A stretch of DNA of 64,000 nucleotides from Candidatus Calditenuaceae archaeon HR02. GTDB taxonomy: Archaea > Thermoproteota > Nitrososphaeria_A > Caldarchaeales > Calditenuaceae. Numbering within the stretch: the first letter of the stretch is position 1; every line of letters begins with the position of its first letter. Below the pieces are notes generated by a model. The model saw only the letters and a program-made list of their open reading frames with translations, did not search any database and was not told the origin of the DNA. The stretch is taken from assembly GCA_002898395.1 (NCBI GenBank), contig BEHE01000007.1, positions 9,048 to 73,047 of the forward strand. Reading direction: 5' to 3'. Position numbers and translations under genes: made by a program. Shown in pieces: positions 7,599 to 25,589 of this stretch.

Positions 7599-8459
7599 TT
7601 ATTGGCTGGTTGAAGCCCTACTCCTGATGGGTCGTTTGATGAACGCTGAGGCTACACTGATGGAGTCTAGCGTCTCCCGGATGTTGTGGGTTCTGACGAT
7701 GTCGGCTCCCTGGAGTACTGCTATGGTCTCTGCGGCCAACGATCCGGACAGCCTGTCAGCAGGATCTGTCTTTCCCGTTATCTTGCCTATGAAGCTCTTC
7801 CTCGAGCACCCTATCAGTACGGGGCGCCCGAGGGCCTTGACCTCCCCTAGCCTCCTCAGGACCTCGAGGTCGAACTCGTACCATTTCAGCGACTTGTGAC
7901 TCCGGTGGAACCCGATGCCAGGGTCGACGATAAGCATCTCCTCGGACATGCCGGCCTCAAGGGCCAGGGAGATGGAGCCCCTCAGCATCGACGTTATGCC
8001 CACGATGGGATCACCCGACTTGACGTTCCTGGCCATAATAATCAGGGAGGCTCCGCTGTCAACTATATCGCGGATCACACCCTTCAGATAAGCTAGCCCG
8101 TAGACATCATTGACCGCGTCGACTCCGAGTCTCAGCCCTTCGAGGACTGGCTTCGGCCTGAAGGAGTCGAGTGAGATTGGGAGGTCCGTCACTTCTCTTA
8201 CAGCCTTCAGGGCCATCCTGACTCTCTCGACCTCTAGGTCCTCATCTATCCAGGTCTCGAGGTAGGGGGCGGACGACATAGCGCCTATGTCAATGAGGTC
8301 GGCGCCTTCCTCCTCCATCTCAGCAGCGGCCCTTGATACTTCCTCAGGAGTTAATCTCACGGAGCCCTTGTAGAAGGACTCGGGGCTGACATTGATGACT
8401 CCCATAACCCTGACGGGGAGTCCTTCGCCGATCTCAAGCCCTCCTATCCTCGCCTTCAC
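7599..8459 (-). CDS. folP: Dihydropteroate synthase (pterin-binding domain)
   Basis: Similar across the pterin-binding TIM barrel: VMGVINVSPESFYKG...GADLIDIGA...DSF...LIIMA...DPGIGF...IGCSRKSFIG. Confidence 0.8.
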   Translation of the reverse strand: MKARIGGLEIGEGLPVRVMGVINVSPESFYKGSVRLTPEEVSRAAAEMEEEGADLIDIGAMSSAPYLETWIDEDLEVERVRMALKAVREVTDLPISLDSFRPKPVLEGLRLGVDAVNDVYGLAYLKGVIRDIVDSGASLIIMARNVKSGDPIVGITSMLRGSISLALEAGMSEEMLIVDPGIGFHRSHKSLKWYEFDLEVLRRLGEVKALGRPVLIGCSRKSFIGKITGKTDPADRLSGSLAAETIAVLQGADIVRTHNIRETLDSISVASAFIKRPIRSRASTSQ

Positions 8460-8646
8460 GTAGGATAAATTCTGTTAGACGCGTATTTCGGGCTTACCAT
8501 ACAGCTCAGAGGCACTATTAGACTCGGAGTTTGTCAAGGACTTGGGGACGATTATTAAAGCAAATCCCTACTCTACATAGAGCCTGTCAAGTCAGCATAA
8601 AGTAATGCAAGGCCTCGCCTTTACAAAATCCGTACGCACCCTTTTT

Positions 8647-8953
8647 GGGGGCGTGCGGCCCGTAGCCCTCCTTCTGTTTTAGGCGGGATTGGTCTTCTCG
8701 GCTCTCCGCGGGCCTCGCCGGCGCTTCTCATCGGCCCGGCGCGCCTTTCCCCGTCAGGGTCGCCCGTTTCATCCATTCTCCACCACTCGTCGCCGCCTCT
8801 GGTTGGCGGGTCAACCTCATCTGCGGTGGAGGGGTCTCGTTTCTGTGGCGTTGCCGTGGGTCTCCCCGCCCACCTCGCGGTGGCTGACTGCACCGGTTGG
8901 GGGGAGGAACTTCCTCGGGAGCTACCCCGTGGCCCGCCCGGCCGCTCGCCCCC
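8647..8953. ncRNA. GC-rich (about 70%) block of about 307 nt closed by a terminal stem; candidate structured RNA, identity and strand unknown
   Basis: The 5' end GGGGGCGTGCGGCC can pair with the 3' end GGCCGCTCGCCCCC. There are internal long stems such as CTCCACC...GGTGGAG. The only ORFs are low-complexity Arg/Pro-rich ones overlapping on both strands. The block sits in a 520-bp gap between folP and xdhC. Confidence 0.3.
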
Positions 8954-8979
8954 AATAAAGAAGATGGGCGGGGAAGGGT

Positions 8980-9906
8980 TTATTCCTTGTCTTTGAGGGC
9001 AGTGGTGGTGCTGTCGCAAGATACGTTACTTAGAGATATTGCTGTCTCGGTCTCCTGGCTTGTCTGGGTCAGGCCGGCCTCGGCCTTCCTGGCCACAGGT
9101 ACACCCCTAATTCTCGCCACCACCTCGGCCAATATTGAAAGAGCTATCTCCTCCGGCATCTTCGCGCCTATATCGATACCCGCGGGCGAGCTTATCCTTG
9201 CTATGAACTCTTCACGCACCCCCCTCTCCCTGAGAAGCTCCAGATTCCGCAGAGCCCTCTTCCTACTGGCCATCAGCCCCAAATAGAGTGGTGTCTTCCC
9301 CGAGATGGCCTCGAGGACCTTAACATCCCTCTCCCCCTTAGTCAAGACTACGACGCAGTCCCGGGGCCCTATCTCCAGTTTGGAGAGGTCGAAGTCTATA
9401 TCTGATATCAGCCTGTCAGGCTCCGCCTCCAACATAGGCATAGGGTCGATGACCCAGACCTCGAAGCCTAGGATCTTCCCAATCCTGACCAGGGCCTCCT
9501 CCACATCATCCTTCCCTCCCTGGCCTATGATGAATAGACGCCTCGCAGGCGTAATCGGGTCGACAAAGATCTCCATAGTACCTCCACAGAAGGTCTCGAC
9601 GAATATCTCATCCCTGCTACCCGAGGTGGCCATACCCCTCACAGCCTCCTCTGTGCTCTCGAGATGCACCTTAACCAGCCTAGGCTCCTCCTCCCTTATA
9701 CACTCTAATGCTATAGAGATGATAGGGCCCTCTGGACAGACTCCCCCCAGAGTCCCATAGACAATCTCCCCCTTATCATCAACCACCATTTTAAACCCTG
9801 GCTTCCCCAGGCTTGAGCCGGAAACCCGAACAACCGTAGCGACAGCATAAGGGCGCCGCTCAGCCTCAAGCCTAGAGAGAGCCTCACCCAGAGACCTATA
9901 TGGCAT
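8980..9906 (-). CDS. XdhC/CoxI-family accessory protein (molybdenum-cofactor insertion chaperone-like)
   Basis: An N-terminal XdhC_CoxI-like segment (YAVATVV...GSSLGKPGFKMVV) and a C-terminal Rossmann-like segment (RLFIIGQGG...VWVIDP). Confidence 0.6.
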   Translation of the reverse strand: MPYRSLGEALSRLEAERRPYAVATVVRVSGSSLGKPGFKMVVDDKGEIVYGTLGGVCPEGPIISIALECIREEEPRLVKVHLESTEEAVRGMATSGSRDEIFVETFCGGTMEIFVDPITPARRLFIIGQGGKDDVEEALVRIGKILGFEVWVIDPMPMLEAEPDRLISDIDFDLSKLEIGPRDCVVVLTKGERDVKVLEAISGKTPLYLGLMASRKRALRNLELLRERGVREEFIARISSPAGIDIGAKMPEEIALSILAEVVARIRGVPVARKAEAGLTQTSQETETAISLSNVSCDSTTTALKDKE

Positions 9907-20831: not shown

Positions 20832-21282
20832 TTACGTAGAACCACCAATCAATATGATATAAACGTGTCTAAACCACGCCAGCTTAAAAGCAGCATTATA
20901 GAAAGTGGTGGCGAGGTGTGTGGAGCGTTTTAGCGTAGGCCACGCCCGACCGTCTAAGCGGCTCGGGCGATTGGGAGTGGCGCGCTGAGGGCGTCCGGCC
21001 TAAGCCTCCGCCCGTACACGCCCACCCCATCAACCCCCTCTTCTAGGGGAGCCCTCGTCGGGGCCCAAGGCCCGTTGCCAGGCCCTATAGGCCCCGATTG
21101 GCCGCCTATTTTTGGGAGTGGCTTCGGGCTTAGATGCTTTCAGCCCTTATCCACAGGGGCGCGGCTGCCCGGCGCCGCCCTGTAGGACGACCGGTAAACC
21201 GTTGGCCCCGGCCCTCCGTTCCTCTCGTACTAGGAGGACCTTTCCCTCAGGCGGCCCGCACCCCCAGTAGGTAGAAACCGAT

Positions 21283-21325
<43 letters not shown>

Positions 21326-21959
21326 AGGCGAGCAGCCTCACCCTTGGCCCCTGCTGCGAGGCCAGGAGGGGAAGAGCCGACATCGAGGTACCAAGCCGCG
21401 GGGTCGATGGGGACTCTCGCCCGCGACGAGCCTGTTATCCCTGGGGTAACTTTTCTGTCACCACCGGCCCCCACTGGTAGGAGCCGATGGATCGCTAGGC
21501 CCGGGTTTCCCCTCAGGACCCCTTGCGTTCGAGGGTCCTGTCAGGCCGGCTTATGCCCTTGCACTCTACAGCGGGTTTCTGTCCCGCCTGAGCCGACCTT
21601 TGGGCTCCTCCGATATCTTTTCGGAGGAGTGCCGCCCCAGCCAAACTGCCCACCAGCCGTTGTCCCAGGGTCAGGCCCTGGTTAGCGGGGCAGTCCGGAG
21701 TAGCCGGTGTTACATTGGCGCCTCCCCAGGCCCCCGGAGAGACCTGGATCGACGGCTCCCGGCTACGCTATGTACTCCAGACCACTCCGCAGCAACTGGC
21801 TGCAGTAAAGCTCCACAGGGTCTTCTCTCCCCACTGGGGGTTCGTGGACTGTTCGCCCACGTTATGTGGGTTCACGGGGCTCCGGGCCGGGACAGTGGGG
21901 CCCTCGTTGATCCATTCATGCACGTCGGAACTCACCCGACAAGGCATTTGGCTACCTTA

Positions 21960-22700
21960 AGCATGCCCGACCGAATGGTCGGGGTTGGACCATATCATCA
22001 CCCATTAAGGGTGCGCGGCGTATGGTCTCTGAGGATCCCGCCCTCAACTAATATTTTCCGGAGTTTCTCCGCCTTTTCAGGGTGTCTGAAACCCACCTTC
22101 TCCGAGAACTTCTCCACATTGTCCCACCCCATCACGGTTAGCCTCCATTGATAGTGTCTTCCCCATGTGTGGGGTTTTTTACGGTTATAGGTAGATGATA
22201 TCTCGTTTAACTGCAGTATGTGGTGTGCCTCTACAAGCACTTTTTTCGCGACCATGTCGATGCTGACGTAGGGATAGCGAAACTTCTTCATGCCCTGAGT
22301 CTGAACATCTATCCCGCAGTATCCTTCACTGTCGAACAGCCCCTTCACGACGTCGATATCGTGTTTAAACAATTCCGGTATCTGCGCGCTGACGAGCTTC
22401 CGCCCCTTCGGGAACCCGATCCTCAACAAGAAGTCATGTACCTTCCTAACATTCGTGGAGACTATGTAGAGGCTTTTACTTGCGCGCCGTATGTTTGGCT
22501 TGACTCCGAAAAGCTCTTCAACCGTGGCGGCGATAAAGTTGGCGAACTCGAAGTTAGGGTCTCGGCAGAAGACCGTGTAATAGTTGCCGTAGACGCCTCC
22601 GTCTCCCAGCATCACTCCAATGAGGTAGGCTAGACTCATCTGCTGTCCGCTGACCTTCAGCCTTTATAGCTGTTTCACAGGGCGGTTTCCTGCGGGTCGG
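21960..22700 (-). mobile_element. rRNA intron 1 (archaeal BHB-type, domain IV, just 5' of the GGTAGC...AAGGTAGCC block) carrying a homing-endonuclease ORF
   Basis: rRNA sequence conservation breaks between about 22700 and 21960 and resumes with CTTAAGGTAGCC. The segment contains a full LAGLIDADG ORF. Boundaries are approximate. Confidence 0.6.
21998..22639 (-). CDS. LAGLIDADG homing endonuclease (double-motif, intron-encoded)
   Basis: Motif 1 LAYLIGVMLGDGG and motif 2 VVKGLFDSEGY. 213 aa, the size of I-DmoI/I-PorI-class enzymes. Confidence 0.85.
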   Translation of the reverse strand: MSLAYLIGVMLGDGGVYGNYYTVFCRDPNFEFANFIAATVEELFGVKPNIRRASKSLYIVSTNVRKVHDFLLRIGFPKGRKLVSAQIPELFKHDIDVVKGLFDSEGYCGIDVQTQGMKKFRYPYVSIDMVAKKVLVEAHHILQLNEISSTYNRKKPHTWGRHYQWRLTVMGWDNVEKFSEKVGFRHPEKAEKLRKILVEGGILRDHTPRTLNG

Positions 22701-23444
22701 ATTCACGGTGCTACGGGATTGTTACCCGCGCGGGGTACCCATAGCCTCCTCCTTCCCCGCATACAGCCGCGTTTAACGACCCCCTTGAACTTGAGGGTCA
22801 GAGTTACCCCCGGCGCTAACCGGCCCTTATCCCGGTTGGACCCGGGGTTCAGGTACCGGTGCTGGCCAGGATTGAGGAGCCGTTCAAAGCCTTTCGGCCT
22901 AGCGGCTCCCTATGTTTTTATTAAACAGTCAGGACCCCCTTGTCACTGCGACCTACCAACCCACCCTCACCGGGCAGGAAGGCAGGCACCCCTTCTCCCG
23001 AAGTTACGGGGCCAATTTGCCGAGTTCCCTAGCCCGGAGTAACCCCAGACGCCTTGGCCTTCTCAGCCAGGGGCACCTGTGTCGGATCTAGGTACGGTCT
23101 CTCGGGATCGTTCCGGGCTCCCTTTTCACTGGCCCCAGGGTCCAGCCGAAGCGGCCTTAAGGCCGCCCCATCCCTCCATTCACCTGGTTCTCGCCATTAC
23201 GGCTCTCCCCAGGCTTGGGAGGTTAGACAGGGCTACGGCCCTGCTCGGCCTTACCTGAGGCGTCGGGAGCCCGGCTTGCGTCGCCGCACCTACCCGAGAG
23301 GCACCGGAATCTTAACCGGTTTCCCCTTCGGCCTACCCGGTTAAGGTCGGCCTTAGGACCGGCTTACTCCCGGCTGACGACGCATTGCCGGGAAACCCGT
23401 GCCCTTCCGGCGGAGGGGATATGGGGAGAGGTCGCAGGACCGTG

Positions 23445-24005
23445 TTCTCCCAAAAAGCGAACAGGTCAAGAAGGAAGGTATTGTAAACTCTGATTGAAAG
23501 TGTCCCGAATTTTGAACGTGAACTCCGTAAGCCCCACCTAACTGAAGGCTTACGGAACTGTGATAATGGTATGTTTAACAAGTTAGACCAGTATTCCTCC
23601 AGTTCCTTCACCCTGTCCGTCCACTCGTCCTTGCGGAGCTTGATTTGTAGCCTAGGCCTTAGCTCGCTTCTCGCTACTCCGAGTGTTTCGAGGAAGTTTA
23701 CCATAGCGAGTAGCTTGTTAGGATCGCTGTTGACGAATTCGAACCTCGTCTTCACAGTTTTAGGTCTTTTAGTGCCTTCACCAGCATAAAGACCAAGAAC
23801 GTACCGAATAGCACCGCTGAGACGTAACGGCGAATCTTCATTGCGCCTACGCGGCCGTTCCCGTACTTGAACCGAAGAGTCACCTTATCGTCCTCTACGG
23901 TCTTCTTAAGTACTTTGGTGTGGTCTAACGTCTCCGGAATGAGCTCTGCTAGGTCTACGTAGCTCATCCTTTAAGTAGAGTTACGTGACAACAAGTAGTT
24001 AAAAG
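23445..24005 (-). mobile_element. rRNA intron 2 (domain III region), about 560 nt, with a decayed endonuclease ORF
   Basis: AT-richer insertion between exon sequences GAGAGGTGCAGGGCCGTC (5') and GGTCCTGCGACCTCTCCCC (3'), which are mutually complementary and form a helix around the junction. The flanking exon sequence aligns to conserved domain III blocks. Confidence 0.5.
23455..23967 (-). pseudogene. Degenerate, frame-split homing-endonuclease remnant inside intron 2
   Basis: Two adjacent minus-strand ORFs in different frames (23752-23967 and 23333-23755). The second has a segment, DPNKLLAMVNFLETLGVARSEL, that resembles the second LAGLIDADG helix region of I-DmoI (NKALLEIVSRWLNNLGV). No intact first motif is present. 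Confidence 0.35.
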
Positions 24006-25198
24006 TTTGACGGCCCTGCACCTCTCTTTCCCACCCCTCTTCGCTGTCTACTACCACCGGGATCTACATTAGCGGCCGGTCCACGGGACCTCACGGCCCC
24101 GCTTCTACCCAACCGCTACGCCCCCCTACCCCCACCCACGCAGCGCGTGAGTGAGCCCGGGTTTCGGCGGCCCGCTTAGACCCGTCAATTTTCGGGGCCC
24201 CCATCCTCGGCGGGTAAGCTGTTACGCACTTCTTAGCTGATGGCTGCTTCTAAGCCTACAGCCCCGCTGTCTCAGGATGGAGACGCCCTTTGGTTTGTCA
24301 CTTAGCGGGCACTTAGGGGCCTTAACCCGCGGTCTGGGTTGTTCCCCTCTCGGTCCCGGAGCTTACCCCCGGTACCCCACTCCTGGGATCTACGGTGCCC
24401 GCGGATTCGGAGTTCGAAAGGAGAGTGGAGCCTCATCGGCCCCTTGCTCCCCCATCGGTGCTCTACCCCGCGGGCAGCCTCCCCCAGGGCTGTCCTGCGA
24501 GACACTTCGGGGGGAACTAGCTATCACCGGGCTCGATTAGCTTTTAACCCCTAGCCCCAGGTCAGGGGACCGATTTGCACATCAAGACCCCTATTCGGGC
24601 CTCCACCAGGGTTTCCCCTGGCTTCGCCCTGCCCAGGGCTAGATCGCCCGGTTTCTAGCCTCACGGGCGTGACTACAGGCCCTTTCAGACCCCGCCCCTC
24701 GCCGGAGCACACTCCGGCTGCGGGCATGTCGGTTTCCCCACGCCTACGGGCTTTCAGCCCTTAGGCTCGCCACACCCGTGAACTCCCCGGCCCGTGATTC
24801 AAGACGGAGTGCACGACCCTGGGATTGTCCCCACTCGCCCCTCACCGGGGCTTCGCAGGGAATGCCCTTTCGGGCCGTGCTCGTCTGTTACCAGCCGGTT
24901 TCAGGCGCTTTTCACCCCCCTCTCGGGGTACTTTTCACCTTTGGCTCACGCTACTGGTCCACTATCGGTCTTGGGACGTATTTAGCCTTGGAGGCCAGTG
25001 GCCCCCAACTTCCCGCACCATATCCGAGGTGCGGTACTCGGGGACCGGAGCATCGCCCCTCCAGCCTTCGCCTACGGGGCTATCACCCTCTCTGGCCCCC
25101 CATTCCAGGGGAGTTCGGCTCAGCATTCAGGGCGGGCCTCCGGCCCCATAACCCCACACTCCCCCCGAGTTAACCTCGGGGGGTTCGGTTTGGGCTGC

Positions 25199-25232
<34 letters not shown>

Positions 25233-25589
25233 TTTGATTTCTTTTCCTCCCCCTACTTGGATGCTTCCGTTCGGGGGGTTCCCGATCCCGGACTGAAGGC
25301 CCGGGAACGAGGTGGCCGAAGCCACCCCAGGAGATCCCATTAGGAGATCCCCGGATCAACGCCCGCCTGCGGCTACCCGGGGCTTATCGCAGCTTGCCAC
25401 GTCCTTCTTCGGCGCCCAAGCCGAGGCATCCACCGGCTGGCGTACCCCCGCTTAGTGCCAAGGCGCGGCCTACTTCGCCACGCTCCACACACCTCTGCGG
25501 CGCGGTCATAGGAAAGTATTAGCCTCCTCCCGCATTCATGCCCCTCAGGACTTCATGGCTGAGGAGCAAACATCTCCGTGCGCAATAGA

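Follow-up and report, generated by a model that had tools for sequence, protein, structure and literature searches.

A type A RNase P RNA gene in a GC-rich intergenic gap of Candidatus Calditenuaceae archaeon HR02

What is encoded by the most GC-rich block of a genome segment when no protein is annotated there? The stretch of archaeal DNA analysed here (64 kb, hereafter the window) contains a block at positions 8647-8953 with 70.4% GC, the highest value of any 307-nt stretch in the window (mean 53.3%, sd 4.4% across stretches of this length); the only other place where such a stretch reaches 68% is the 3' end of the 23S rRNA gene. An earlier note on this DNA had described the block as GC-rich and situated in a 520-nt gap between genes, and this description holds: the gap extends over 8460-8979 and is flanked by two minus-strand genes. 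The note regarded the block as a possible structured non-coding RNA of unknown identity, for which RNase P RNA and signal recognition particle (SRP) RNA were the two candidates.

Three proteins encoded around the gap have sequences identical to those of GBC71039.1, GBC71040.1, and GBC71041.1, encoded on an 86,871-bp contig of Candidatus Calditenuaceae archaeon HR02, the organism to which the GTDB family now named Calditenuaceae (order Caldarchaeales, formerly Aigarchaeota) owes its name (PMC10547907). GBC71039 and GBC71040 are numbered consecutively over the gap, and the deposited record thus calls no protein in it. The same locus is present in the Logan assembly of run DRR101361.

When the entire window was compared with Rfam 15, two matches exceeded the gathering score, the 23S rRNA and RF00373, the family of archaeal RNase P RNA. 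The RF00373 match is located on the minus strand (8949..8651), has a score of 156.8 bits (E = 1.6e-44) at a gathering score of 84 bits, and spans model positions 1-288 of 288, that is, it is not truncated. In a survey performed with this model, genuine archaeal RNase P RNAs scored between 53.6 and 228.6 bits, and random genomes gave 14.3 bits at most (PMC3579882). We assign positions 8953..8647 of the minus strand, about 307 nt, to the RNase P RNA (RPR) gene of HR02, archaeal type A, with a probability of about 97%. The significance of this feature comes from the covariance-model match and from the covariation presented below, and not from the terminal stem or the folding energy. The match, obtained in the cmscan search that the earlier note had recommended, settles the identity that the note left unknown and decides in favour of one of its two candidates.

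The other candidate, the archaeal SRP (7S) RNA, resembles the block in its size of about 300 nt, its high GC content, and its closing terminal stem. Nevertheless, no SRP family was matched at gathering score anywhere in the window, and a permissive scan of 8400-9100 on both strands (E<=1) returned RF00373 as the sole family and no SRP RNA. The helix-8 motif GGAAGCAGCC is missing on both strands, and the RNase P model accounts for the whole length of the block. For lack of both a covariance-model match and a motif of the GGAAGCAGCC type, SRP RNA was rejected, and we give it practically no weight. Separately, the idea of a tRNA-related block was rejected because ARAGORN detected no tRNA or tmRNA in the 64-kb window.

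The elements of the RNase P RNA gene and its surroundings are collected in Table 1; where RNA numbering is used, position 1 corresponds to window position 8953.

Table 1. Coordinates of the RNase P RNA gene of HR02, its helices and conserved regions, and the adjacent features of the window.
Feature	Position in the window	Strand	Remarks
RNase P RNA gene (rnpB/RPR), type A	8647..8953	-	RF00373 match 8949..8651 plus longer P1; about 307 nt
P1, 5' strand	8939..8953	-	14 bp with 8647-8662; one conserved unpaired A/A
P1, 3' strand	8647..8662	-	Rfam match and alignment of relatives
P2, 5' strand	8933..8938	-	6 bp; pairs with 8682-8687
CR-I GAGGAAGUUCC	8916-8906	-	Variant of consensus GAGGAAAGUCC; contains the P4 5' strand
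P4, 5' strand AGUUCCUCC	8911-8903	-	AGU(U)CCUCC with bulged U; 8 bp with 8671-8664, long-range pseudoknot
P6 pseudoknot	8896-8890 with 8724-8718	-	CCGGUGC with GCGCCGG in the P17 loop; recovered independently by RNAalifold
P8 hairpin	8883-8870	-	Specificity domain; double-sided changes in relatives
P9 hairpin	8869-8856	-	Specificity domain; double-sided changes in relatives
S-domain region CACAGAAACG	8847-8838	-	Conserved; one of two T-loop-type modules
P12 stem	8773..8834	-	GA-rich internal loops and distal stem; 6 pairs with double-sided changes
S-domain region GAUGAAACGG	8773-8764	-	Conserved T-loop-type module
P15-L15-P16-P17 arm	8700..8745	-	Helices from Rfam and alignment; P17 short
CR-V ACAGAAGG	8677-8670	-	P4 3' strand follows
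P4, 3' strand GGAGGGCU	8671-8664	-	Within 8664..8677 together with CR-V
TATA-box-like AATAAA	8979..8984	-	-31..-26 from G8953; overlaps the xdhC TAA stop (8982-8980)
Oligo-T stretch AUUUUGU	8623..8629	-	18-24 nt beyond the P1 3' end; read from the sequence
folP-like ORF	7599-8459	-	Pterin_bind/dihydropteroate-synthase-like
xdhC-like ORF	8980-9906	-	XdhC family

The helix set of the HR02 RNA is complete. Its catalytic domain comprises P1-P5 and P15-P17 together with the P4 and P6 pseudoknots, and the specificity domain comprises P7-P12 with the modules CACAGAAACG and GAUGAAACGG; in the former P3 is a hairpin of 5 bp and P5 has 4 bp, with a 3-nt linker (AAA) between P5 and P15, and in the latter P7, P10, and P11 are present in addition to P8 and P9. 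The 6-bp P2 has the length typical of non-type-T archaea (PMC3579882). Three of the Rfam pairs are non-canonical in the HR02 RNA, and the relatives show poor pairing in the inner half of P15 (58% of cells).

The pairing of the 5' and 3' ends reported in the earlier note is real: GGGGGCGTGCGGCC (8647-8660) and GGCCGCTCGCCCCC (8940-8953) are complementary at 13 of 14 positions, and the single mismatch, A/A on the minus strand, is a position that is unpaired in the family consensus too. The resulting P1 is 4 bp longer on each side than in the Rfam model; this extension is kept in the relatives, and 97.6% of the P1 cells are paired among nine sequences. As a signal in itself the terminal stem is not beyond chance, since five loci in the window have 13/14 complementarity at a span of 200-400 nt and local shuffles preserving the composition give about two.

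The sequence GCGCCGG occurs twice in the RNA, at RNA positions 212-218 (8736-8742, over P15, L15, and P16) and 230-236 (8718-8724, in the P17 loop), and it is the second copy alone that pairs canonically with CCGGUGC to form P6. The other copy could enter an alternative pairing with CCGGUGC, mutually exclusive with P6.

Folding energies give no guidance in this case. For neither strand does the minimum free energy fall significantly below the values of dinucleotide shuffles (z = -1.64 for the minus strand and -0.50 for the plus strand), and single-strand folding of either strand does not tell which one is the gene. Unremarkable folding energies are common among GC-rich RNAs with pseudoknots. 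The high GC content itself reflects the stabilisation of helices in a thermophile.

To obtain comparative data, we scanned one genome per species with the pattern GAGGAAGTTCC-N(45-75)-CACAGAAACG, which yielded 48 loci; since the pattern fixes GAGGAAGTTCC and CACAGAAACG, the invariance of those columns exists by construction. Eight of the 48 loci can be aligned to the window RNA from end to end and are 76-95% identical to it. They belong to metagenome-assembled genomes (MAGs) labelled as Nitrososphaerota, Thermoproteota, Caldarchaeales, Calditenuaceae, Wolframiiraptor, or "uncultured archaeon". The Rfam structure supplemented with P4 was projected on the MAFFT alignment of these nine sequences (the window and eight relatives). 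Standard pairs occupy 95.1% of the 716 cells; sliding the 3' partners by 1-3 columns lowers this share to 43-51%. Double-sided changes affect 14 pairs, whereas the slid controls contain 1-3 such pairs, and not one of the 500 shuffles reached any of the observed covariation measures. The double-sided changes are located in P7, P8, P9, P12, and P16. The covariation analysis suggested in the earlier note thus shows that the fold is supported by the eight relatives.

RNAalifold, run without any knowledge of the family, recovers P1, P7-P12, and the P6 pseudoknot. Used without pseudoknot handling, it mispairs P2, P3, and P4, and its nested consensus was employed for P6, P7-P12, and P1 only. P6 is kept among the relatives with a G-C/C-G swap and U-G/U-A/C-G variation, and P4 and P6 taken alone are paired in 98.5% of cells versus 42-60% in the slid controls.

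The same alignment bears on the possibility that the block encodes a small Arg/Pro-rich protein, either from the 132-aa ORF on the minus strand (8621-9019) or from the 89-aa ORF on the plus strand (8689-8958). Local ORFs of 132, 89, 75, and 56 aa do overlap on both strands and are Arg/Pro/Gly-rich, although ORFs of 56-132 aa on both strands are what is expected at 70% GC. The 132-aa and 89-aa ORFs, the two that were tested, have no Pfam match; relatives with at least 90% identity carry indels of 1, 2, and 4 nt, which break every frame; and the substitutions are compensating pairs across helices. The absence of a protein call between GBC71039 and GBC71040 in the deposited record also speaks against coding. 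Protein coding was rejected on the frame-breaking indels and the lack of Pfam matches for the two ORFs, and we consider it vanishingly improbable; the earlier note had already called it unlikely.

All conserved regions of the RNase P RNA follow each other in the correct order on the minus strand. The S-domain modules ACAGAAACG (8847-8838) and GAUGAAACGG (8773-8764) were found flanking P12, together with P10 and P11, and P10, P11, and P12 are paired in the nine-sequence alignment. The earlier note could not find the P4 strands of RNase P RNA. Both are present; they were missed because the minus strand carries the gene and the 5' strand of P4 reads GGAAGUUCC in place of GGAAAGUCC.

In the 5' strand of P4, GAAGUUCC stands where the family consensus has GAAAGUCC, and all three differences are compensated on the 3' strand. 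The first replaces A-U with G-C, and the third replaces C-G with U-A; the second turns G-C into U-G in the window and in one relative (L003) and into U-A in the other seven of the nine aligned sequences. In other words, beside the bulged U, a universally conserved feature, G-C and U-A/U-G take the place of the A-U and G-C pairs. P4 is paired at 100% among the nine sequences.

Since the search pattern fixes the 5' strand of P4, this helix was retested against the consensus and across lineages. The GAAGUUCC variant was found at 45 archaeal loci, and the matching ...CUA 3' strand is present in 44 of the 44 that could be scored by motif search. The remaining locus (L041) was unscored since it reads ACGGAAGG and not ACAGAAGG; in the alignment its P4 is paired at 100%. 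The variant is common to Caldarchaeales, Methanomassiliicoccales, and some Thermococci, and one P4 pair varies by lineage, being U-A in Caldarchaeales, G-C in Thermococci, and C-G in Methanomassiliicoccales.

The compensated P4 variant, occurring across several archaeal lineages, is the sole mildly notable point of this RNA. One could suppose that it is not neutral, altering the binding of metal ions in the active site or catalysis, and that its scattered distribution could represent repeated convergence; we hold this to be very unlikely. The alignment of Caldarchaeales, a small and clean type A set with the compensated P4 variant, might be mildly useful to specialists in comparative analysis of RNase P.

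Nine of the loci with RNase P RNA motifs of the Methanomassiliicoccales type (L004, L006, L007, L012, L013, L034, L043, L045, and L046) occur in "bacterial" MAG bins labelled as Bacteroides ovatus, Lachnospiraceae, Ruminococcus, Dialister, Firmicutes, Bifidobacteriaceae, and Bacteroidaceae. In these gut bins neither P4 strand differs from its counterpart in Methanomassiliicoccales MAGs, and most likely the bins contain archaeal contigs mis-binned into bacterial gut genomes.

The deviation of the P4 strand from the family consensus at three positions might also be read as decay, so that the block would be a non-functional copy, and another part of the genome, of which 64 kb is in view, would contain the working RNase P RNA gene. 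This reading faces a full-length match with every helix intact, and P4 differences that are compensated and common to the whole order and to other archaeal lineages. Moreover, the locus is syntenic in six related genomes, in which the order xdhC-RPR is kept, and archaeal genomes normally contain a single copy of the RNase P RNA gene (PMC3579882). A decayed copy is, in our opinion, extremely unlikely, and we treat the block as the RNase P RNA gene of HR02.

By the criteria of PMC3579882, the HR02 RNA is an ordinary type A molecule, as indicated by the 6-bp P2, the 4-bp P5, the 3-nt P5/P15 linker, and the presence of P8, P16, P17, and P6. With the type A RNAs represented by RF00373 and by the RPRs of Methanothermobacter thermautotrophicus and Pyrococcus it shares all helices (P1-P5, P7-P12, and P15-P17), both pseudoknots (P4 and P6), the lengths of P2, P5, and the linker, the ordered regions CR-I to CR-V, the bulged U of P4, and GA-rich, possibly K-turn-like loops in P12 and P16/P17. 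It differs from the type A model by the compensated GAAGUUCC for GAAAGUCC and by the three non-canonical pairs.

The comparison with other types leads to the same assignment. The type M RNAs of Methanococcales and Archaeoglobus belong to the same enzyme and are alike in the P4 core and the S-domain modules; however, type M has no L15, P16, P17, or P6 and usually no P8 (PMC3579882), all of which are present in HR02. The type T RNAs of Thermoproteaceae share with the HR02 RNA a host from Thermoproteota in the broad sense and a similar catalytic domain. In type T, a K-turn adjoins the P6 pseudoknot at P16/P17 (PMC13462272), and the corresponding site beside P6 in the HR02 RNA has a K-turn-like motif. 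Most of the S-domain is missing from type T RNAs, their P2 measures 3 bp and their linker 2 nt, and they escape RF00373 (PMC3579882), whereas the HR02 RNA has a complete S-domain, a 6-bp P2, and an RF00373 score of 156.8 bits. Archaeal SRP RNA (RF01857), which is similar in size, GC-richness, and the terminal stem, differs in that neither its model nor its helix-8 motif is matched.

The K-turn-like site deserves a closer look. At P16/P17, the strands GGGCC-GAU-GA-G (8737-8727) and C-GA-GGCCC (8719-8710), as read from the sequence, fit the K-turn pattern with a C-stem, a 3-nt bulge, and tandem G.A pairs; the motif adjoins the P6 strand and is conserved in the relatives. The L7Ae sites of archaeal RNase P RNAs have the same K-turn arrangement beside P6 (PMC13462272), which suggests that L7Ae may bind here. 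In P12, the GA dinucleotides are present and conserved and have no unambiguous fit to the canonical K-turn pattern; a canonical double K-turn might possibly be formed by them.

As a universal housekeeping ribozyme, RNase P RNA trims tRNA precursors at their 5' ends, and nothing in the HR02 sequence suggests a departure from the scheme typical of the family. As known from the family, the RNA would form a ribonucleoprotein with Pop5, Rpp30, Rpp21, Rpp29, and L7Ae and act as its catalytic subunit. In archaeal RNase P, Pop5-Rpp30 is placed on the C-domain, Rpp21-Rpp29 on the S-domain, and L7Ae on the K-turns (PMC13462272), and the HR02 RNA would presumably recruit its partners in the same manner. 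The S-domain is predicted to recognise the stacked T-arm and acceptor stem of pre-tRNA, with the T-loop modules docking the elbow formed by the T- and D-loops, and L15, beside the P6 pseudoknot, would contact the 3' end. The P4 region would position the metal ions, upon which the bond at the 5' end of the mature tRNA would be hydrolysed and the 5' leader removed.

The expression of the gene may be considered in the same terms. With respect to G8953, AATAAA is found at -31..-26, the place usually taken by an archaeal TATA box. An A/T-rich box occurs at a similar distance in all eight relatives, including two that have no xdhC upstream, and about 25-30 nt upstream in the six that keep the xdhC-RPR order; in these syntenic relatives, the conservation of AATAAA cannot be fully separated from that of the C-terminal xdhC codons. 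These data are consistent with a promoter function of AATAAA, which would drive transcription most likely starting at G8953, the first base of P1, or in its immediate vicinity. Beyond the 3' end, AUUUUGU might be an archaeal termination signal; its position is unconserved among the relatives, and we infer this function only weakly.

The location of folP downstream of RPR was found in the window and in none of the relatives. The segment ACCCUGACGGGGAA (8747-8760, the 3' strands of P7 and P5) shows 13/14 complementarity to a site close to the 5' end of the folP-like mRNA (8407-8420). This complementarity is at chance level, judging by its frequency in the window and in shuffles, and the absence of folP next to RPR in the relatives bears on it as well.

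We found nothing specific in the literature on RNase P RNA in Aigarchaeota or Caldiarchaeum. The HR02 gene encodes a known housekeeping RNA, which a standard Rfam scan catches immediately, and it matters little beyond annotation. The practical gain is a corrected annotation for this one Calditenuaceae genome, in which the minus strand of the 520-nt "intergenic gap" carries an essential RNA gene.

The rRNA and tRNA gene content of the window provides some additional observations. No 16S or 5S rRNA was detected in the 64 kb by Rfam at gathering score, and no tRNA genes by Rfam or ARAGORN. This places the 16S gene at a distance of at least 38 kb from the 5' end of the 23S gene, and the rRNA genes appear to be unlinked in the HR02 genome. 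The 23S rRNA gene itself (20952-25457, minus strand) has 4,506 nt compared to the 2,987-nt model, and the excess of about 1.5 kb is represented by two low-GC blocks at about 21900-22700 and about 23350-24000. The first contains a same-strand ORF of 213 aa (21998-22639) with a LAGLIDADG_3 domain (E = 3e-11), and the second contains an ORF of 140 aa (23333-23755) with no Pfam match. The two blocks are probably archaeal rRNA introns, at least one of which encodes a homing endonuclease.
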